A stretch of 64,000 bases of DNA from Ignavibacteria bacterium (GTDB lineage: Bacteria > Bacteroidota > Ignavibacteria > UBA10030 > SZUA-254), in contig JACOSY010000016.1 in the NCBI GenBank assembly GCA_016178595.1, positions 38,151 through 102,150 of the forward strand, read 5' to 3'. Position numbers and translations under genes: made by a program. Under the pieces are notes generated by a model that was given only the letters and a program-made list of their open reading frames with translations, was not told the DNA's origin and searched no databases. Below are positions 4,302 to 19,501 of this stretch, piece by piece. Position 1 is the stretch's first letter; every line of letters starts with the position of its first letter.

Positions 4302-6362
4302 TCACCAATTCAACACGGGAAAGAGCGACGTGTAATCGTCCGTCCACACCGGCACGGTAATAGTCGTCTGCCGGTCGGGGAAAACTGCTTCTTGAACTGC
4401 TCGCTGCTGAAGCAATGTCGTGTTCAGCGTTAACACGATCCACTCGGACGGAAACCGGCGGATGTCGCGCTCCTGGTTGAAATCGGTCAATACAATCATT
4501 GGAAGCTTTAACTCCTTCGCGACCGCAGCAACCACGGCGTGAAGGTTCACCTGTTTGCTGGAGATGTTGACGAGGATTGCGCCGTCCGGCTTGATGTGCT
4601 TCAGGAAAATTTCGAACGCTTCCCTGGTCAACAAATGCACGGGAGGAGAATCGCTGTTGAATGCATCCAGCACGAGCACGTCGAAATTCTGCGGCGGCTC
4701 CTTCTCCATCGAGAGGCGCGCATCGCCGATGACGATGTCGTTCCGTGCCAGGCAATCGGCAAGATAGGTGAAATGCTTCTCCGCCAACTGCTGCACCTGC
4801 GGGTTGATTTCGTAGAAGCGAAAATAGTCTCCGGGCCTGCCATACGCTGCGAGCGTTCCCACTCCCAGCCCCACCACACCGACACGGTGCGCGCTATCTC
4901 CCGGTAAGCTTGTCAGAACTCGTCCGGCTCCGCCTTTCGCAGTGAAATACGACGTGGGCATACGATGGTACTGCGGGTTGATAAACTGATACCCATGCAG
5001 CGTTTTCCCGTGCCGCATGACAAGGAACTGTCGATCACGATCGTTCTCATTATACGACGTGATCGCGAGCGTACTGAAAAAATTTCGTGCCGTATCCACC
5101 GTGTTATGATAGATAATGCGTGTCTGCTGGTAGAAAAGAATTGCAAAGATTGCCACTCCGGCTGCAAGGCCTGCCCATGCCCAGCGAGGTTTTCCGCGAC
5201 GCAACGGACTCGTCTCATCGACAAAGAACATCAGCAGGACAACACCGCAGCATGCAAGGATCGCGCATTGAAACTCATAATATCCGCTGAACAACACCGG
5301 CGCAAGAAACGTTACGAACATTCCGCCCATAGCGCCGCCAGCTGCAATCGACAAGTAATAGGAGGTAAGATGCGATGGCGGCGGTTTCAGTCGCGCGACC
5401 TCGCCATGACAAATCATGCAGCCGATGAATACAAGGCATGAATAGATTGCAAGCTGCGGCAGAAATGTCAACGTTTCTTCATTGAACATCATCCAGCACA
5501 CGATTGAGATAGCGACAAGGTATGCAATCGCGTATGTCGGGCGCGAGTACCACCGCGGGTGATCGAATGTGAGGACGAATGTGAGAAGATAGATGGCCAG
5601 CGGCAGCACCCAGAGCAACGGCATCGGCACAACTTCCTGGCAGAGCTTATTCGTTGTTGAGAGCAGCAGCACCGATGCGATCGCCGGCAGCGTTATCCAC
5701 AACGCACGATCGAGCAACGGCACAGCGACGACTTCTTGTTTTTCATCGTCCGGCGTCCGGGGACCCGGAAGAACCGAAGCCTTGCGCCAAAGGTAGACAG
5801 CACTCGCGACACACACGACGACGAACACCATCATCCCCCACGACCATACTTCCGCTTGCGCCCGGCGCGCGATGTTCGGCTCGACCACAAAGGGATATGC
5901 GATCAGTGCAAGCAGAGAGCCGACGTTCGATAACGCATAGAGTCGGTACGGAACTGTCGCAGGGGAAAGCATACTCAGCCAGCGCTGAAGCAGCGGACCG
6001 GTGGTCGCAAGAACAAAGTACGGAATGCCGAGCGAAACAAAGAGCAGCGTCAGGATGCGAATCGTCGGGTCGACGTTCGATGTGGGTTTCCATTGATCTC
6101 CGGGAATGATCGGCAAGAGCACGAGTGCGAGAAGAAGAATCAGAACGTGCAGAATAATCTGCTGGCGTGGACGAAGATATCGTGTGATCAGATGACTGTA
6201 GGCATATCCGAACAGAAGAAACGTTTGGAAGAACACGATGCAGGTTGTCCACACCGCTGCACTGCCGCCGAACCACGGCAGGATGTATTTGCTGATGATC
6301 GGCTGAACAAGGAAGAGGAGAAACGCGCTGAGAACAATTGTTATGGAATAGAGGATACGCAT
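4302..6362 (-). CDS. Fused polytopic membrane domain / spermidine-synthase-like aminopropyltransferase
   Basis: The N-terminal half has about 10 TM helices. The C-terminus has a spermidine synthase fold with GVVGLGVGTLA and DVLVLDAFNSD...PDGILVNI motifs. The start was chosen at MRILY (6362) because the upstream ATG at 6383 lies inside a hairpin. Confidence 0.7.
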   Translation of the reverse strand: MRILYSITIVLSAFLLFLVQPIISKYILPWFGGSAAVWTTCIVFFQTFLLFGYAYSHLITRYLRPRQQIILHVLILLLALVLLPIIPGDQWKPTSNVDPTIRILTLLFVSLGIPYFVLATTGPLLQRWLSMLSPATVPYRLYALSNVGSLLALIAYPFVVEPNIARRAQAEVWSWGMMVFVVVCVASAVYLWRKASVLPGPRTPDDEKQEVVAVPLLDRALWITLPAIASVLLLSTTNKLCQEVVPMPLLWVLPLAIYLLTFVLTFDHPRWYSRPTYAIAYLVAISIVCWMMFNEETLTFLPQLAIYSCLVFIGCMICHGEVARLKPPPSHLTSYYLSIAAGGAMGGMFVTFLAPVLFSGYYEFQCAILACCGVVLLMFFVDETSPLRRGKPRWAWAGLAAGVAIFAILFYQQTRIIYHNTVDTARNFFSTLAITSYNENDRDRQFLVMRHGKTLHGYQFINPQYHRMPTSYFTAKGGAGRVLTSLPGDSAHRVGVVGLGVGTLAAYGRPGDYFRFYEINPQVQQLAEKHFTYLADCLARNDIVIGDARLSMEKEPPQNFDVLVLDAFNSDSPPVHLLTREAFEIFLKHIKPDGAILVNISSKQVNLHAVVAAVAKELKLPMIVLTDFNQERDIRRFPSEWIVLTLNTTLLQQRAVQEAVFPDRQTTITVPVWTDDYTSLFPVLNW

Positions 6363-6412: not shown

Positions 6413-7732
6413 CTAATCGTAATACTCAAGTCCCAGGTGCGTGATCAGCTCTTCGCCCTTCATGTGGCGCAACGTGTTCTTCAACTTCATGAGCTGGATG
6501 AAGAGATCGTGCTCGGGGTAGAGACCCGGCGCAAACATCGGGCTCTTGAAGTAAAACGAAAGCCATTCCTGAATTCCTTTCATGCCGGCACGTTGAGCGA
6601 GATCCATAAAGAGCACGAGATCGAGCACGATGGGTGCGGCGAGGATCGAGTCGCGGCAGAGGAAGTTGATCTTCACCTGCATCGGGTAACCCATCCATCC
6701 GAAGATATCGATATTATCCCAGCTTTCCTTGTTGTCGCCGCGCGGAGGATAATAATTGATGCGGACCTTGTGATAGTAATTCTTGTAGAGTTCGGGATAT
6801 AATTCCGGCTGGAGAATTCCTTCCAGCACGGAGAGCTTGCTTTCTTCTTTTGTTTTGAACGACTCCGGATCGTCCAGCACTTCGCCGTCGCGGTTGCCGA
6901 GAATGTTGCTCGAGAACCAGCCGCTCAGTCCGATGAGGCGCGCTTTCAGCATCGGCGCGATGACGGTCTTGACAAGCGTCTGCCCTGTCTTGAAATCTTT
7001 TCCGGCAATGGGCAAACCCGTTTGCTTTGCAAGCTCCATCAGCGCCGGCGTATCGACCGTGAGGTTCGGTGCTCCGTTGGCGAACGGCACGCCTTCTTTC
7101 AGCGCGGCGTAGGCATAGAGCATGCTCGGTGCAATATCGGGGTGATTCTTTTTCATTGCGTCTTCGAGCTTCTTGACATTCTTATGTACGTTATTCGGAC
7201 TGATGAACACTTCCGTGCTGCCGCACCAGATCAGCACACACCGATCGAGCTTGTTAGCGGTCTTAAATGTACGGATGTCTTCGCGCAACATTTCCATCAA
7301 TTCAAACTTGGTTTTCCCTTTCTTCACGTGCTTCCCGCTGAGGCGCTTCACATAGAACTGGTCGAAGACGGCTTTCATCGGATGAACGGCCTGCAACTCT
7401 TTCTTAATGCTGTCGAGGTGAGTTCTCTCGAGAACGCCGGCTTCGCAAGCAGACGCGTAGCAATCCTCGTTGCGAATATCCCATCCGCCGAACACGAGAT
7501 CATCGAGCTTTGCGAGTGGAATGAAATTTTTGATGAGGGGCGAGCGATGCTCGGTGCGTTTGCCGAGACGGATCGTTCCCATTTGTGTGAGTGACCCGAT
7601 CGGCATGGCAAGACCTTTGCGCACCGCCATAACGCCGGCAAGAAACGTCGTAGAGACGGCGCCGTTCAGTCCGACGATGAGCACTCCGAGTTTTCCTTTT
7701 GGCTTTGTAATGGTGTGAGTAGTCTTCTTCAT
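6413..7732 (-). CDS. ino1: myo-Inositol-1-phosphate synthase (MIPS)
   Basis: NAD-binding GLNGAVSTT is present. SSNILGNRDG matches the conserved SYNHLGNNDG block of MIPS. Length is about 440 aa, with the start taken at MKKTTH. Confidence 0.8.
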   Translation of the reverse strand: MKKTTHTITKPKGKLGVLIVGLNGAVSTTFLAGVMAVRKGLAMPIGSLTQMGTIRLGKRTEHRSPLIKNFIPLAKLDDLVFGGWDIRNEDCYASACEAGVLERTHLDSIKKELQAVHPMKAVFDQFYVKRLSGKHVKKGKTKFELMEMLREDIRTFKTANKLDRCVLIWCGSTEVFISPNNVHKNVKKLEDAMKKNHPDIAPSMLYAYAALKEGVPFANGAPNLTVDTPALMELAKQTGLPIAGKDFKTGQTLVKTVIAPMLKARLIGLSGWFSSNILGNRDGEVLDDPESFKTKEESKLSVLEGILQPELYPELYKNYYHKVRINYYPPRGDNKESWDNIDIFGWMGYPMQVKINFLCRDSILAAPIVLDLVLFMDLAQRAGMKGIQEWLSFYFKSPMFAPGLYPEHDLFIQLMKLKNTLRHMKGEELITHLGLEYYD

Positions 7733-7795
7733 GACAGTGTTCCTTTTGATTTTAAAACTCCTTAGTGAAGGCGACGTCACGTGACGTCGCCTGCG

Positions 7796-8476
7796 TTAGA
7801 ATAGAATTTTCCGAATCTCTTCAAAATGTTCAATGCTAAAATCCGTAGCCGGTGTTTCGGTCGGATGTGCAGTCCAGCTCTTCCCTTTCAGCCAGATCGT
7901 CGTGCAGCCGAGCTGTTTTCCCGGGACAATATCGCGCTCGTACGAATCGCCGACGACGTATGCTTCTTGTGCAGCGATAGCAAGCCGGTCAAGCGCCAAT
8001 TGGAAAATTGCCGGATCGGGCTTTCGGATGCCGACGACAACCGAATCGATCATCGTATCGAAGTATCGATCCAAACTAAACTCTTTGCAGACAATTTCCA
8101 AATTGCCATAGAAGTTCGAAACAAGTCCGAGCTTGTATGCGCCGTGAAGATCATTCAGGAGATTTCGTGCGCCGGCAATGGTCTTTCCCACGTCGGCATA
8201 GCACGCATTAATGATCCGCATGAGAACTTCATGTCGCTCACTGAACCCGAGTATTGCGAATTGCAGCGTGAACTGCTTCACGAGCGTTGCGTAGAATGTC
8301 GCACTCGAAAGCGATGAATCTTCTCCAAGCTCTTCTTCCGAGCGAACGAAGACGCGCGCGAAGTCTTTCTTTGCCACGGGAAGCTTGAAACGCTCGTAAT
8401 ATTCCCAGAATTTTTCGCTCCAATGCACGCCATCGGTGTCGATCGTTCCGCCGAAATCAAAGAGGACTGCGTTCAT
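7796..8476 (-). CDS. HAD-superfamily hydrolase (candidate inositol-phosphate / phosphatidylinositol-phosphate phosphatase)
   Basis: The N-terminal DFGGT motif (HAD motif I with the nucleophile Asp) and a C-terminal GDSxxD are present. It sits between MIPS and the dehydrogenase. Confidence 0.75.
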   Translation of the reverse strand: MNAVLFDFGGTIDTDGVHWSEKFWEYYERFKLPVAKKDFARVFVRSEEELGEDSSLSSATFYATLVKQFTLQFAILGFSERHEVLMRIINACYADVGKTIAGARNLLNDLHGAYKLGLVSNFYGNLEIVCKEFSLDRYFDTMIDSVVVGIRKPDPAIFQLALDRLAIAAQEAYVVGDSYERDIVPGKQLGCTTIWLKGKSWTAHPTETPATDFSIEHFEEIRKILF

Positions 8477-8510
8477 CGTATCATCAAGATCATGATTTGT
8501 TTCTTCGACT

Positions 8511-8646
8511 CACCTCTCCCTAACCCTCTTCCTTCGCTACGCTCAGGACAAGCTCTACGAGGAGAGGGGATGCAGGCTTTGCAATTGCCTGGCATCGCAG
8601 TCAAAACATCCTCTCCTAGTAGGAGAGGATTATAGGTGAGGTGGGT
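8511..8646. repeat. Diverged palindromic MITE-like element (CACCTCTCC ... CCTCTCCTAGTAGGAGAGG ... AGGTGAGGTGGG)
   Basis: It has terminal inverted segments and an internal perfect palindrome. It lies between HAD 5'-end copies 1 and 2. Confidence 0.45.
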
Positions 8647-8724
8647 TTGCGTCAGCATAATACTCCCGAAGTCGAATAAGACAGCTTTCATCGGTCATCG
8701 TCTGACATTGTCAGTTCTTTCCTC

Positions 8725-8794
8725 CGACCCTCTCCTCTGTCACTGCGTGACATCCCCTCTCCCAAATTGGGAGAGGGGAACGAGGGGTGAGGGT
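8725..8794. repeat. Palindromic element, family 1 (CCCTCTCC-TGTCAC-N3-GTGACA-TCCCCTCTCCC-AAAT-TGGGAGAGGGG ... GGGTGAGGGT)
   Basis: The same architecture recurs at 10820-10886 and 19092-19192. Confidence 0.6.
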
Positions 8795-8827
8795 CAACGC
8801 TACCGCCGAAGTCGAGGAGGATTGCGT

Positions 8828-9841
8828 TCATACAAGATCGAGAACTGCTTTCTCCTCCGATGACCGGTAACTCGCATCCAACAACTTCATCACCATGAAT
8901 GCTTCATCCAACAGGTCGGTGGCCATGTTCTTTTGTTCGATCCGGCAAATGAATTCCTGAAACAGCGCCGCATACCAGGCAACGTATTGACTCTTATCGG
9001 AAACATCCGGCATCGGGATTTCTCGCGTCTCCTCTCCATCAGTGTGGAGCAGGTGTACACCGTCGTAGGAAAGACTTCCTTTCTCTCCGGCAACGTACAC
9101 GCTGTTCGCGCGCTGGTTTGCCGCCCACGTGAGGTTGATCTGCATGAGTGTGTCCGGATATTCGAGCGTGACGATTGCCGTGTCTTCAACCCCATAGTCC
9201 GTATGCTTCAGCGTCCGAAGGATTGCAGAGATTTTCTGTGGGATTCCAAAGAAGTATTGCGCAAGATAGAAATAATGCGCGCCGGTATCGACAAGAATCC
9301 CGCCGCCGCTGTGACTCTTGCTCGTCCGCCACTGCGGATTCCAATTTGCCGTTCCGGTATCGGCATGAAGCCGGTACACGTTGAATTGCGCGAGCGCGAC
9401 CTTGCCGAGCTTCCCTGACGCGATAACATCCCGGATCGATTTCCAGAGCGGTGAGTACTTGTATTGATGGCACGGCACAAACACGATTCCTGCTTTCTTC
9501 ACGGCATCGGCAAGCTCTCTTGCAGTAGAATATTTTTCCACCAAGGGTTTCTCGCACACAACATGAATACCTTTCGCTGCACAGGCTTTGATGTATTCTG
9601 CATGGGTGTACGGCGGCGTGCAGATATCGACAAAATCGGGCTTCTCGTTTTCAAGGAGTGTATTGATCGACGTATAAAAAGTTGCTCCCGGAAACACTTC
9701 GTTCGCCTTCGTACGACTTTGCTCTACCACGTCCATGACGGCAACGATACGTGCTTTCGACTTCACGCCTTCGGACTGATATGCCGGAACATGACCGCGC
9801 AGCGCGATGTTGCCAAGACCGATTAACGCGCCACGCAGCAT
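8828..9841 (-). CDS. Gfo/Idh/MocA-family NAD(P) oxidoreductase (inositol 2-dehydrogenase-like)
   Basis: An N-terminal Rossmann GLGNIALRGHVPAY is followed by EKP (CEKPL) and a GGG...D C-terminal domain. The start overlaps the upstream stop (TAATG). Confidence 0.8.
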   Translation of the reverse strand: MLRGALIGLGNIALRGHVPAYQSEGVKSKARIVAVMDVVEQSRTKANEVFPGATFYTSINTLLENEKPDFVDICTPPYTHAEYIKACAAKGIHVVCEKPLVEKYSTARELADAVKKAGIVFVPCHQYKYSPLWKSIRDVIASGKLGKVALAQFNVYRLHADTGTANWNPQWRTSKSHSGGGILVDTGAHYFYLAQYFFGIPQKISAILRTLKHTDYGVEDTAIVTLEYPDTLMQINLTWAANQRANSVYVAGEKGSLSYDGVHLLHTDGEETREIPMPDVSDKSQYVAWYAALFQEFICRIEQKNMATDLLDEAFMVMKLLDASYRSSEEKAVLDLV

Positions 9842-10812
9842 TACGCAACCACCTTCTGCTCATCCACCATCTCGATCAGTCGAGCGCTCAACTGTTCCTG
9901 ATGCATCGTCACGAGAATCATGACAAGGTTAATGCCGACAATCTCCGTGACGAAATACACCGGCACGACATCCGCAAGCACGCAGATTGACATGACGATC
10001 ATTCGCGTGTTCGTTGTCAGCGCGGCATAATACTTCATGAGCGGCTTGTTCAAACGACGGTACTCGTCGGAGAACCACGAGGGAATATTTGTTCCGAACT
10101 CCTGCTCGACTCGTTTCCGCAGCGTCTGAAAAGTTTTTGAGAGCGCTTCTTGTTGAACCGTGTAGTTCAAGTAGACGCGGAGAAGAATCTTCTTCAAAGG
10201 ATTCCTCGCGAAGGATGTCGACCGGTATTCGGAGCGAACTTGATCGGATTGGTCAAGCTCGGACTTGGTCGGATCGACGACAAATTTCAAGTATGCATTC
10301 CTGTAGTAATCGGCGAGCGAGCTTTGGAGGGAATGGCTGATGCCTCCTGCAAGTGTGAGCACAAGCAGTAACGGCCAGGCTACGTTCGGATATGTTTCGA
10401 CCATGCGTGCAAAGAGGTGCAGATAGATGCTGAGGAACATGATGTTCCCGCCGAGACCGTCGAGAATGCGGCCAATCTTCGATCGGTGGTTCGTCATGCG
10501 GGCAAGCTGCCCATCGACACTGTCAAGCGTATCGGCGATGATCCAGAGTGCGATTCCCCAGACATTGGTAAGGAAGTCTCTATAATAGAGCAAATGCCCG
10601 CCGGCGACGCCGATGAAGATGCTAACGATGGTGACGACGTTCGGCGTAATGCCAAGCGACTGACACGCCCGTGCGATCCAGAACCCGAGCGGACGGTAGA
10701 AGTAGATATCGATCGTCTCTTCGACGTCGCGGGCTTTGTACGTGGATTCGATTGCGGGTGTGGTAAATGTGTTCATCTCAATGTATTTTTCTGTTGCCGT
10801 AAACTTAGCCAT
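9841..10812 (-). CDS. CDP-alcohol phosphatidyltransferase family protein (PIP synthase / DIPP synthase-like)
   Basis: DTLDSVDGQLARMTNHRSKIGRILDGLGGN matches the D-G-x2-A-R-x8-G-x3-D-x3-D signature. There are multiple TM helices. Confidence 0.75.
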   Translation of the reverse strand: MAKFTATEKYIEMNTFTTPAIESTYKARDVEETIDIYFYRPLGFWIARACQSLGITPNVVTIVSIFIGVAGGHLLYYRDFLTNVWGIALWIIADTLDSVDGQLARMTNHRSKIGRILDGLGGNIMFLSIYLHLFARMVETYPNVAWPLLLVLTLAGGISHSLQSSLADYYRNAYLKFVVDPTKSELDQSDQVRSEYRSTSFARNPLKKILLRVYLNYTVQQEALSKTFQTLRKRVEQEFGTNIPSWFSDEYRRLNKPLMKYYAALTTNTRMIVMSICVLADVVPVYFVTEIVGINLVMILVTMHQEQLSARLIEMVDEQKVVA

Positions 10813-10819
10813 TTCTCAG

Positions 10820-10886
10820 CTACCCTCTCCCTGTCACTTCGTGACATCCCTCTCCCAGATTGGGAGAGGGATCATAGGGTGAGGGT
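10820..10886. repeat. Palindromic element, family 1
   Basis: The sequence is CCCTCTCCCTGTCACTTCGTGACATCCCTCTCCCAGATTGGGAGAGGGATCATAGGGTGAGGGT. It lies between the aminotransferase stop and the transferase start. Confidence 0.6.
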
Positions 10887-12223
10887 TACATTTTCTGTGC
10901 TAATACTCCGAATGCCTGATCCATGATGTCAATCCCCTCTTCCGCAGTCGCTTCGTCGATGACGAGCGGGGGATTGATGCGGATGTCCGGACTGTAGCTC
11001 ATTGTGATGAGGCCTCGTTTCAGGCACTCGAAGAAAACCATCTTGCACGTTTCTTTGTCGAGTTTCTCCTTCGTGCCGGGCTTCACGAGCTCAACGCCGA
11101 TAAGGAGCCCTTTGCCCCGCACTTCACCGATGAACGGATATTTTTCTTTGAGCTTCATGAACTTACTCAACATGAACGCTCCAACCTTGCGAGAGTTTTC
11201 CACCAGTCCGTCTTCAACGATGGTCTTCACCGTAACGTAGGCTGCCGCTGAGGCGAGTGGATTCCCGCCGTAGCTCGAGGAGCTGCCGCTTGGGTTTGCG
11301 AACGGCTTCGAGAAAATAATTTCATCGCGCGACATGAGTCCGGTCATCGGATAACCGCCGCCAAAACTCTTACCGATCGTGATAATATCGGGAACGATAT
11401 TATCATGCTGGCAAGCGAAAAGTTTTCCGGTACGACCGAATCCTGTGATCATCTCGTCGCAGATCAAGAGCGCACCGATCTCTTTGGTCAGCTTACGAAG
11501 CTCAATCAAGTATCCTTCCGGCGGCACCACGTTGCCGTTGGTTCCCTGTATCGGCTCGACGATGATCGCCGCGAGGTTGCCGGTCGTCTCCGTCTTGATC
11601 TTTTCGCGAATGAAATCCACGCACGCCCAGTTGCACTCGGGGAAGGTGAGGTGCAGCGGACAGCGGCGGCAATTCGCGTACGGCGTATTGTAAATGCCGA
11701 ATGGCAACGGACCGAGCTGCTGCTTGAACGTATCGCCGATGAGTCCGACCACACCGAGCGTTTTTCCGTGGAAGCCGCCCCAGAAACCCATGACTTCGGT
11801 TTTCTTTGTGTAGGATTTTGCGAGCCGCAGTGCCGCTTCGACCGCTTCCGCGCCGCCACTATAATATTGCGTGCGATAAAGGTCGCCCACGGCGTTTTCG
11901 GCAAGCATCTTCGAAAGCTCGGCGCGTACTTTCGTGGTGAACGACCCGACGTGGATCTTCGCCACCTGTTCTTGCATCATCTTCACGTACTTCGGATGAT
12001 TGTAGCCGAGGCTCGAAACCGCAACGCCGGCAAAGAAGTCGATGTAACGGTTGCCATCGACATCCTCGATGATACAGCCCTCGCCTTTCTCGACAACGAT
12101 CTGCGACAGCGTGGCAATCGTCTGTGTGCCAGGAGAAATATATTTCTGTTCGAGGTCGAATATCTCCTTCGACTTCGGCCCGGGGATGGCGGTTTTGATG
12201 GAGGATTTTTTCTTGTGCGTCAT
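10886..12223 (-). CDS. Class-III (ornithine/GABA-type) PLP-dependent aminotransferase
   Basis: The DEMITGFGRTGK PLP-lysine region and a GG...HG glycine-rich block are present. The start was reassigned to MTHKKK (12223) because the upstream ORF extension overlaps the neighbouring gene. Confidence 0.8.
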   Translation of the reverse strand: MTHKKKSSIKTAIPGPKSKEIFDLEQKYISPGTQTIATLSQIVVEKGEGCIIEDVDGNRYIDFFAGVAVSSLGYNHPKYVKMMQEQVAKIHVGSFTTKVRAELSKMLAENAVGDLYRTQYYSGGAEAVEAALRLAKSYTKKTEVMGFWGGFHGKTLGVVGLIGDTFKQQLGPLPFGIYNTPYANCRRCPLHLTFPECNWACVDFIREKIKTETTGNLAAIIVEPIQGTNGNVVPPEGYLIELRKLTKEIGALLICDEMITGFGRTGKLFACQHDNIVPDIITIGKSFGGGYPMTGLMSRDEIIFSKPFANPSGSSSSYGGNPLASAAAYVTVKTIVEDGLVENSRKVGAFMLSKFMKLKEKYPFIGEVRGKGLLIGVELVKPGTKEKLDKETCKMVFFECLKRGLITMSYSPDIRINPPLVIDEATAEEGIDIMDQAFGVLAQKM

Positions 12224-12230
12224 AGTATCA

Positions 12231-13052
12231 CTAATCAACATGTGAATGTGCCTTTCTGTAAATAAGCTGTGCAATATGCTTACTTGCCTGCTCGCGCACG
12301 GGGGCAAAGCTCGGCCAGTCATTGATATCGATGATCGTGACGCTACCATCCCTTCCGATGATCGCGTCTCCACCGTACACATACAAGTTGAGCGCATCGG
12401 CGGAAGCCAGGGCAAGCTCGCGGAGCTTTTTCTCGTCGAATGGCGTGTGGTATACGCCGTTCAAGTAATACCAGTGGAAGAGATCGGTTTCACGCACTGC
12501 GTAAAATTTCACCGTGTCGCCGTCAAGATGTTCCTGCAAGATGGCTTGCTTGATGTCGCGCGCATGAAATTCCTTCAGGAGTGTCATCTCCTCATCGTCC
12601 GTGCTTGCGAGCGTTACATCTTCTTTATGAACGGCATGGACGTCTCCACGCTTGATCCAGATCTTCGATGTTGTGAAGCCGGCTTGCCGCGGGTTGATGT
12701 CGGAATCTGTCGCAACGATGACGCTTTTAGGGAACGGAATTCCTGCTTGCGGCAACATCTTTACCATGTTAATCCGGTAACAGTTCATTACCGCCCGCGG
12801 GGAGTTGATGATGGATGCGCCGCGCTGCTCGATCGTCAGAAGTGTGTTGGAACCGATCGGGCCTTGCGCCATGGAGAAAATCAGTTTCTCTTTAACATCG
12901 TCCGGCGTGACAACGCCTTCATCGTGCATCGTCACTTCAGCACCGAGCTTTTTCAATTCATCAGCCGTCTGGTTGATGATGAGAAGATCGTTCACGACAT
13001 GGTTCGGCGAAAATTCCGTCTTCCGCCGAATGCCTGCAAAATGGAGTTTCAT
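12231..13052 (-). CDS. ATP-grasp fold protein (possible ligase or inositol-phosphate-kinase-like enzyme)
   Basis: The C-terminal IIDINDWP looks like a DxN Mg-binding motif. The overall length and spacing fit an ATP-grasp fold. The family assignment is tentative. Confidence 0.4.
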   Translation of the reverse strand: MKLHFAGIRRKTEFSPNHVVNDLLIINQTADELKKLGAEVTMHDEGVVTPDDVKEKLIFSMAQGPIGSNTLLTIEQRGASIINSPRAVMNCYRINMVKMLPQAGIPFPKSVIVATDSDINPRQAGFTTSKIWIKRGDVHAVHKEDVTLASTDDEEMTLLKEFHARDIKQAILQEHLDGDTVKFYAVRETDLFHWYYLNGVYHTPFDEKKLRELALASADALNLYVYGGDAIIGRDGSVTIIDINDWPSFAPVREQASKHIAQLIYRKAHSHVD

Positions 13053-19071: not shown

Positions 19072-19091
19072 ATGTATTAATGTTGCGTAAG

Positions 19092-19192
19092 ACCCTCACC
19101 CCGTCCCGACTTCGTCGTGACGCCCCTCTCCCATTGGGAGAGGGGACGGTCTACGACTCTACCGAGTCGAAGACTCGTAGAAGGGTGAGGGT
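19092..19192. repeat. Palindromic element, family 1, with perfect 10-bp terminal inverted repeats (ACCCTCACCC ... GGGTGAGGGT)
   Basis: Its internal palindromes are CCCCTCTCCCATTGGGAGAGGGG and GTCTACGACTCT..AGACTCGTAGA. Confidence 0.65.
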
Positions 19193-19501
19193 CGAAAAAT
19201 GTGTGAAAAGATACCAAGAATTTGACAGATTTCCAAGAATACATACGGCAACGGTCTTGACAGACGAAAGAAATTTGAGTATGTTTCCATTGCCTCGGGG
19301 GAGTACGACGCTGAGGGCTACTGCATATCATGATCAACATGTCTTACTCCATATCTGCCGCGAGTGTTGTGTGGATTTGCAAAAGCTTTGAATTGATAGG
19401 AGGAGTTCGACGTAAAGAAATAAAGATGCAATGCGGATGTATATTGTTATACGCAACGCCGCCCGACGCATGATTGTCCTACATATTCATGACCATCGCT
19501 T

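Follow-up and report, generated by a model that had tools for sequence, protein, structure and literature searches.

A GFO/HAD operon junction in an Ignavibacteria genome with three HAD gene starts and two BoxC-type palindromic elements: probable junction duplication and a candidate ribosome relay

Why should the start of one gene stand three times in a row at an operon junction, twice fused to a palindromic repeat? The question is raised by a stretch of 64,000 nt from an Ignavibacteria bacterium (assembly GCA_016178595.1, contig JACOSY010000016.1, positions 38,151 to 102,150 of the forward strand), hereafter the window, on which all positions are based. On its minus strand, a gene for a GFO/Idh/MocA oxidoreductase (GFO) precedes a gene for a HAD-family hydrolase (HAD), and between them lie two short open reading frames (ORFs), mini-ORFs A and B. 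Each begins with a copy of the HAD start (heads A and B; head C is the real one) and crosses a palindromic element (E_A and E_B). We consider it probable, although far from certain, that the GFO/HAD junction was duplicated together with the gain of BoxC-type elements and that the leftovers were kept as a relay for ribosomes to HAD. The parts of the junction, from the upstream to the downstream gene, are as follows.

8828 to 9841, minus strand: GFO/Idh/MocA oxidoreductase gene (PF01408, PF22725, PF02894), whose TGA at 8828-8830 overlaps the ATG of mini-ORF A at 8829-8831
8832 to 8860, minus strand: uA, the last 29 nt of GFO, the upstream half of the duplicated junction
8688 to 8831, minus strand: mini-ORF A, 47 codons, beginning MNAILLDFGGSVD, which crosses E_A and whose TGA overlaps the ATG at 8691
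8796 to 8831, minus strand: head A, a copy of HAD codons 1-12 by sequence comparison
8726 to 8795, no strand assigned: element E_A, 70 nt, of the BoxC/triplex-motif type
8692 to 8725, minus strand: spacer uB, from E_A to the ATG at 8691, read from the sequence
8473 to 8691, minus strand: mini-ORF B, 72 codons, beginning MKAVLFDFGSI, which crosses E_B and whose TGA overlaps the HAD ATG at 8476
8659 to 8691, minus strand: head B, a copy of HAD codons 1-9 with a degenerate tail, by sequence comparison
8509 to 8646, no strand assigned: element E_B, 138 nt, composite, of the BoxC/triplex-motif type
8477 to 8508, minus strand: uC (AGAAACAAATCATGATCTTG), a relic of the GFO 3' end lying 5' of the real HAD start, recognized by local alignment with the GFO end (AGAAAGCAGTTCTCGATCTTG; shuffle p = 0.006)
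7796 to 8476, minus strand: HAD-family hydrolase gene (Pfam Hydrolase/HAD_2), starting MNAVLFDFGGTID, with head C at 8438-8476

The three HAD-like ATGs lie at 8831-8829, 8691-8689 and 8476-8474, the last belonging to the real HAD gene, and each is part of an ATGA, seen on the plus strand as TCAT at 8828-8831, 8688-8691 and 8473-8476. A preliminary description of this DNA had reported these starts, joints and mini-ORFs, and all were present where it had placed them; the mini-ORFs also run through palindromes as it had said, each crossing a strongly folding element (-63 and -64 kcal/mol). Compared over 29 nt, the two extra heads show 86% and 72% identity with the real HAD head, in agreement with its view that the copies are diverged and do not represent a recent tandem duplication. 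A Pfam search found no family in either mini-ORF or in the two plus-strand ORFs that span the region, whereas the HAD protein has 2596 homologues and a 100% match to a protein from a metagenome-assembled genome (MAG).

Since the HAD start peptide is short and highly conserved, and since assemblies do break at palindromes, chance likeness or a metagenome assembly artefact might be suspected. However, the pattern M[NK]A[VI]L[FL]DFG has exactly three matches in the six-frame translation of the 64-kb window, all at these ATGs, and the copies differ too much from each other to represent collapsed strain variants. Moreover, the MAG contig JACPZI010000068.1 (L001; fetched loci carry L numbers) is identical across the compared region, namely the 681-nt HAD gene and 524 nt upstream of it. 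Six Logan contigs from five sequencing runs are likewise identical throughout their overlap (L134 from 10851 to 8758, and L002-L006 from 8755/8766 downstream). The GFO protein, too, is unchanged in the MAG and in Logan contigs. The uniqueness of the motif and the independent identical assemblies effectively refute an explanation by chance or artefact, to which we attach hardly any probability. The same Logan contigs stop only at, or a few bases from, the centres of palindromes, namely E_A and the related element E2 described below, so elements of this type evidently fragment short-read assemblies.

We compared the locus with its relatives. The operon (6413-12415, minus strand) encodes an aminotransferase of class III, a CDP-alcohol phosphatidyltransferase, GFO, HAD and a myo-inositol-1-phosphate synthase (MIPS), and it is conserved in L007, L010 and L012. 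To judge from its gene content, it looks like a pathway to a modified, possibly amino-, inositol lipid head group. Motif I of the HAD protein reads FDFGGT, compared with the usual DxDxT. In each of the five genes, L007 is the nearest relative (94, 79, 75, 71 and 91% amino-acid identity). In L007 (ATGA), L010, L011 and L012, a 4-nt overlap (ATGA or GTGA) joins GFO directly to HAD, and in a scan of JGI metagenomes, which yielded 80 related loci, this 4-nt ATGA/GTGA overlap was dominant among relatives with at least 50% identity. No extra HAD head was found in about 75 related loci with upstream sequence, and a triplex-type motif occurred at the GFO/HAD junction in only 1 of about 75. The direct overlap in relatives and the lack of extra heads indicate that the 352-nt insert is derived and specific to this lineage. 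The comparison of related genomes that the preliminary description had called for thus revealed an empty site, and its proposal of insertion at a gene junction is borne out by L007, L010-L012 and most of the closer metagenome relatives. Neither closer relatives nor intermediate alleles were found in the databases or among the 80 metagenome loci, the next HAD homologue being 72% identical. In L008 (954-1430) and L009 (1083-1559), the GFO/HAD junction holds a 158-codon ORF instead, with a weak match to NigD_C (E = 0.026); in these loci the junction was evidently interrupted independently and in another way.

In the reading that we favour, the ancestral GFO and HAD genes of this inositol-related operon would have overlapped by 4 nt (ATGA), an arrangement permitting termination-reinitiation coupling, and about 350 nt, comprising E_A, E_B and the extra junction copies, would have been gained in this Ignavibacteria lineage. 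With no bases to spare between the genes, both could have stayed intact only if a rearrangement duplicated the junction. The duplicated stretch would consist of about 28 nt of the GFO end, the ATGA and the first 36-39 nt or so of HAD. The two copies of the native junction would be represented by heads A and C, and head B, between the elements, would be a third HAD start. The leftover starts would open two short ORFs that cross the elements in open frame and stop on the next ATG, so that ribosomes ending GFO could start afresh at each of three successive joints, unfolding the hairpins on the way, and so reach HAD. The layout of the junction, the empty site in relatives, the class of the repeats, the relation of A and C to B and the frame statistics are direct results. 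Beyond them, we infer that a junction-duplicating rearrangement accompanied the acquisition of the elements, possibly through replication stalling or template switching at the structures or through illegitimate recombination, and that selection maintains a relay that is in fact translated.

The heads themselves are not equivalent. Over codons 1-9, heads A and C agree at 23 of 27 nt, whereas head B agrees with each of them at 20 of 27. The heads of orthologues from other lineages show 17-25 of 27 identical positions, a range that covers the values of all head pairs. Heads A and C share the derived states AAC (Asn2) and GCA. The changes peculiar to head A alter amino acids (V4I, F6L, T11S and I12V) and those peculiar to head C are synonymous, which fits a pseudo-copy (A) and a working copy (C). 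On these grounds, the grouping is ((A,C),B); the native junction seems to have been duplicated locally, giving A, which has decayed, and C, which still works. The claim of three copies fused to a repeat therefore stands in part: the copies are present, but the elements are different members of one class, the unit also holds a relic of the GFO 3' end, and A and C form a pair with B as the outlier. No significant homology to the GFO 3' end was found in uB (p = 0.29). A diversity-generating retroelement was considered and rejected by eye, as the differences between the copies are not adenine-specific.

Head B encodes the peptide of the orthologue consensus, MKAVLFDFG, and differs from the consensus at 6 nt, all six differences being synonymous. 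In a simulation, none of 20,000 runs of six random substitutions kept the peptide (P < 5e-5). Between heads B and C, 7 differences cause a single amino-acid change (P ~3e-4, or 0.01-0.04 if just 4-5 of the changes fell on an unconstrained branch). This pattern indicates that, for most of the time over which it diverged, head B was a working gene start under peptide constraint. It would be either the head that worked until a later rearrangement gave rise to C from the GFO-A junction, or one imported by recombination from a diverged relative.

The palindromes had been taken for dispersed repeats, and such they are: the window contains four related elements, E_A, E_B and the following two.

10822 to 10886, no strand assigned: E2, of the E_A subfamily, separating the end of the aminotransferase gene from the start of the CDP-alcohol transferase gene in this operon
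19091 to 19193, no strand assigned: E3, a related copy, intergenic

E_A (GACCCTCACCCC...GGAGAGGGTC), which is closely similar to E2, reads on the plus strand CCCCTCTCCC-AAATT-GGGAGAGGGG-AACGA-GGGGTGAGGG, followed by a GTCAC/GTGAC hairpin, and has the terminal inverted repeat GACCCTC/GAGGGTC. The plus strand of E_B contains a first triplex-type motif, CCTCTCC-TAGTA-GGAGAGG-ATTATA-GGTGAGG, with a central hairpin beside it, and a second one in the opposite orientation, CCCCTCTCC...GGAAGAGGG-TTA-GGGAGAGG; the element is closed by CCTCACC/GGTGAG. Its GTCCTGAGCG..GAAGG module did not appear as a separate dispersed repeat, since among the fetched loci it was found at this locus only. Spacer uB is rich in purines (GGAGGAAAG) and has a small hairpin (CTGACAATGTCAG); its last bases, just ahead of the ATGA, are GATGACCG. 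E3 has perfect 11-nt terminal inverted repeats (GACCCTCACCC/GGGTGAGGGTC). The folding energies given above correspond to z = -4.0 for the E_A unit (-63 kcal/mol) and z = -5.8 for E_B (-64 kcal/mol), and across E_B, E2 and E3 the z-scores against shuffles range from -5.8 to -8.9. A scan of genome collections for the core CCTCACC(C)-N2-6-(C)CCTCTCC-loop-GGAGAGG(G) returned at least 120 stretches (L013-L132), and the phyla among the matches listed include Planctomycetes, Proteobacteria, Cyanobacteria, Chloroflexi, Acidobacteria and Bacteroidota, among others, a much wider spread than the Proteobacteria and Cyanobacteria on which the 2015 paper cited below laid stress.

We assigned the elements with the published ITxF criteria, namely stems of 6-15 nt, loops of 1-6 nt and a third block that mirrors the purine block (PMC4666352). 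This relaxed triplex layout has three matches in the window (8610-8641, 8756-8792 and 10849-10884), with 0 expected. The strict TM_ECO pattern, CCCTCNCCC-N3-6-GGGNGAGGG-N3-GGGNGAGGG, has none in the window, where the second loops are 5-6 nt long. By hand count, E_A contains 10 perfect purine-motif triads (blocks GGGAGAGGGG/GGGGTGAGGG) and E2 contains 9. Judged by the relaxed layout, the window elements belong to the BoxC/PIT/intrastrand-triplex-motif class.

The triplex motif (TM) of that strict pattern has been reported in 3610 copies from 262 proteobacterial genomes (Holder et al. 2015, PMC4666352). Its copies in E. coli K-12 are all intergenic and without ties to known mobile elements, TM loci are more rearranged among E. 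coli strains by a mechanism described there as unknown, no transposase is known for the class, and some purine-type triplexes can arrest polymerases (PMC4666352, the last point in its introduction). The window elements resemble the class in their three-block layout, in the inverted pairing of motifs seen in E_B and also described in E. coli, in their many dispersed copies without a transposase and in their link with rearranged DNA. They differ in the longer second loop (5-6 nt instead of 3), in their extra hairpin modules and closing inverted repeats, and in their host, an Ignavibacteria MAG rather than a proteobacterium. Furthermore, published copies are intergenic, whereas two of ours lie inside short ORFs at a former gene overlap, flanked by duplicated gene ends. 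Further accounts of BoxC/PIT elements are reportedly those of Bachellier et al. in 1999 and Hoyne et al. in 2000. To our knowledge, how repeats of this class spread has been unknown since the 1990s.

The frames of the two mini-ORFs suggest why the leftovers might have been kept. Successive ATGs are 140 and 215 nt apart; both distances equal 2 mod 3, as a chain of ATGA joints requires (1/9 by chance). The frames used have no internal stops, whereas 2, 4, 8 and 5 stops are found in the remaining frames of the two units (8 and 5 in unit B), and, given its in-frame length, about 3% of composition shuffles leave frame B open. Gene starts in the window mostly lack a Shine-Dalgarno-like sequence, and overlaps of 1 or 4 nt are found between several neighbouring genes, which makes coupling and unstructured starts plausible requirements. 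A structure of -64 kcal/mol directly 5' of the HAD start, which has no Shine-Dalgarno sequence, should hinder initiation unless ribosomes open it. At all three joints the upstream stop overlaps the downstream start, as at the ATGA or GTGA junctions of the relatives. The preliminary description held that coupling is preserved from GFO through to HAD; the ATGA chain, with its spacings and open frames, is compatible with this. The candidate relay suggests selection for translational coupling, and we infer that the mini-ORFs are kept as stations at which ribosomes coming from GFO terminate and reinitiate on their way to HAD.

Coupling through ATGA stop/start overlaps is familiar, for example, from junctions of the E. 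coli trp operon. The ancestral GFO/HAD state is exactly such a junction, and the stop-start overlap is retained here; the difference is that coupling would pass through two intermediate short ORFs. In a limited literature search, we found no description of a relay through intermediate ORFs and nothing relevant on MITE (miniature inverted-repeat transposable element) insertion combined with translational coupling.

Several observations weigh against junction duplication followed by retention of a relay. The likeness between uA and uB and between uB and uC is not significant in a shuffle test. The exclusively synonymous differences of head B (6 of 6, P < 5e-5) do not fit the neutral decay of a local duplicate and require a more complex history. 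The structure occurs in one lineage alone, without intermediate alleles. As for the relay, the G/C-rich blocks of the elements are stop-poor, which makes the open frames less improbable than the shuffles suggest, and translation of the mini-ORFs is a prediction. Finally, flank duplication is absent at E2 and E3, about 150 related elements elsewhere have no flank duplication like that of the window, and an element block in E. coli was replaced without one.

For the elements elsewhere, left flanks were compared with right flanks, at the DNA level for 156 elements and at the peptide level for 151. The DNA test has little sensitivity to old duplicates, as the cases in the window scored 11-13 against a control 99th percentile of 13, whereas the peptide test did pick up both, with scores of 56 and 49 where no control exceeded 46. 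In the other genomes, nothing but tandem arrays and other repeats scored. The arrays are L031 and L078 (Pseudomonas), L050 (Bacteroidales) and L080 (Xanthomonas); of the other three high scorers, L020 represents another repeat family, and L130 and L026 are low-complexity GC-rich matches. In all four arrays, the whole unit of triplex-type element plus spacer is repeated, with periods of about 151 nt in L031 (Pseudomonas crudilactis, 233-755) and 78 nt in L050 (62-251). The E. coli case, the one locus of this kind examined, is the adk-hemH interval of K-12 (L215, 420-600). It holds a BoxC/TM block of about 160 nt, in place of which about 46% of 5426 complete genomes carry an unrelated hairpin-containing sequence of about 55 nt (compare L216 and L217), with break points just after the adk stop and about 75 nt before hemH. 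At the E2 site (10812-10890), the relatives L010 (560-600) and L012 (565-605) have a 26-nt overlap of the aminotransferase and CDP-alcohol transferase genes, and no duplicated gene end was found at E2 by comparison with them. The CDP-alcohol transferase ORF of the window has an N-terminus 18 codons longer (323 versus 305 amino acids).

The same results bear on the idea that the structure is a transposition footprint, in which MITE-like elements inserted through widely staggered cuts and left two successive target-site duplications of about 70 bp that decayed neutrally. Both elements directly abut the duplicated junction, E3 has its perfect inverted repeats, and the site is empty in relatives, as this idea would have it. 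Of the features that define a MITE, terminal inverted repeats are found (E3 and E_A), and a fixed-length direct repeat flanking every copy is not. Long flanking repeats are lacking at E2, E3 and the elements elsewhere, tandem arrays excepted, and the adk-hemH change is a block replacement. Nested target duplications also predict that B and C, or A and B, are the closest heads, whereas A and C are; the divergence of head B is constrained rather than neutral; and no transposase is known for the class (PMC4666352). We therefore regard transposition as improbable. Given the absence of duplication at E2, E3, about 150 elements and the E. coli site, the duplication cannot be credited to the insertion chemistry of the elements, and long target duplication as one of their properties, which the preliminary description had suggested, does not hold; the synonymous divergence of head B likewise contradicts simple decay. 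The duplication is better seen as a rare rearrangement, the sole viable outcome at a junction without spare bases. The locus may even hold a rare footprint of the entry of BoxC/triplex-motif elements, in which a stall and template switch, or recombination, copied tens of flanking bases and the debris was kept as relay mini-ORFs because the ATGA hand-over was needed across a structure of -64 kcal/mol; this is a speculation to which we give a small chance.

The divergence of head B could also be accounted for if the insert consists of recombination scars. The operon, or part of it, would have been replaced, by homology-facilitated illegitimate recombination, with DNA of a diverged relative. Head B would then be what is left of the working junction of one lineage, A and uC plus C would be overshooting ends of the other, and the elements would mark, or have mediated, the joints. 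Head B does diverge as an orthologue would, since its distance from A and C is no different from that of other lineages' heads and its differences are all synonymous, and A and C share derived states. Triplex-motif intergenic blocks of E. coli, moreover, are exchanged as whole cassettes (PMC4666352), as at adk-hemH. However, the gene bodies on both sides of the junction agree in their nearest relative and in the order in which the other relatives follow, the five-gene comparison gave no sign of a mosaic origin, and no donor allele was found. Two joints would both have to keep the frame and the ATGA overlaps by chance. Illegitimate joints, in addition, normally come without palindromic elements. 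These considerations make recombination scars unlikely, though not negligibly so.

The preliminary description had alternatively offered the mini-ORFs as leader-peptide-like regulators. In such an arrangement, the mini-ORFs and hairpins would form an attenuator of termination or of HAD/MIPS expression. The ORFs do span strong structures, and E_B contains a terminator-like hairpin on the operon strand (8630 to 8608) with a 10-bp stem and a short U tract (GTTTTG tail), although it is weak. A perfect TATAAT stands on the minus strand inside E_B (8636 to 8631), 5' of this hairpin. Either sequence could affect HAD/MIPS expression, by attenuation or as an internal promoter. Nevertheless, an Rfam scan of 7600-11200 (E<=1) gave no match, the promoter and terminator scan did not exceed shuffles (6 terminator-like sites, 6.9 expected), and the mini-ORF peptides show no runs of regulatory codons. 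The hairpins are generic dispersed repeats. None of the relatives that have this operon shows the structure, which is therefore not a conserved regulatory device. The regulatory claim is not sustained by these data, and we consider it very unlikely.

Two other known systems deserve comparison. REP/BIME and REPIN elements are mobilised by RAYT (Y1/HUH) transposases (Ton-Hoang et al. 2012, PMC3333891). In L012, a RAYT-like Y1_Tnp gene (4554-5244; 199 amino acids, HUH motif) lies directly after MIPS of this operon, with perfect REP hairpins, CTCCGACTCACCT-N3-AGGTGAGTCGGAG, to its left and right. The 12-mer pattern GGTGAGTCGRAG occurs, among 217 fetched loci, just in these REPs and at the E_B/uC boundary (8506-8514). 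Like REPs and REPINs, the window elements are short, abundant palindromes in operons, and the E_B boundary shares this 12-mer with the REPs of L012; unlike REPs and REPINs, they have no Y1 homologue in the 64-kb window and no established GTAG-type cleavage motif. The sequence resemblance suggests at most a weak link to REP/RAYT. We know of no REP insertion that duplicates tens of target bases. Some MITEs, among them the Rickettsia palindromic elements (RPEs), insert into genes without breaking the reading frame, and RPEs become part of functional proteins. The elements described here are likewise palindromic repeats read in open frame, but they lie in leftover mini-ORFs between intact genes, and no short TA-type target duplication is visible.

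Taken together, the GFO/HAD junction is a real, reproducible and lineage-specific rearrangement involving a known class of repeats, not a new kind of system, and as a single-lineage case its general importance is limited. It extends the BoxC/triplex-motif class, best known in Proteobacteria and reported in Cyanobacteria too, to Ignavibacteria and many phyla, and adds one concrete case to the 'genomic instability' reported around these motifs. The points of most note are the unexplained constrained divergence of head B and the possible function of the relay. If the relay is true, annotation pipelines that discard such mini-ORFs would miss functional translation units, and repeat elements in operons would impose a selectable constraint on reading frame. 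The locus shows how an operon without intergenic space can tolerate structured repeats, with its junction duplicated, the leftovers in frame and the stop/start coupling unbroken.

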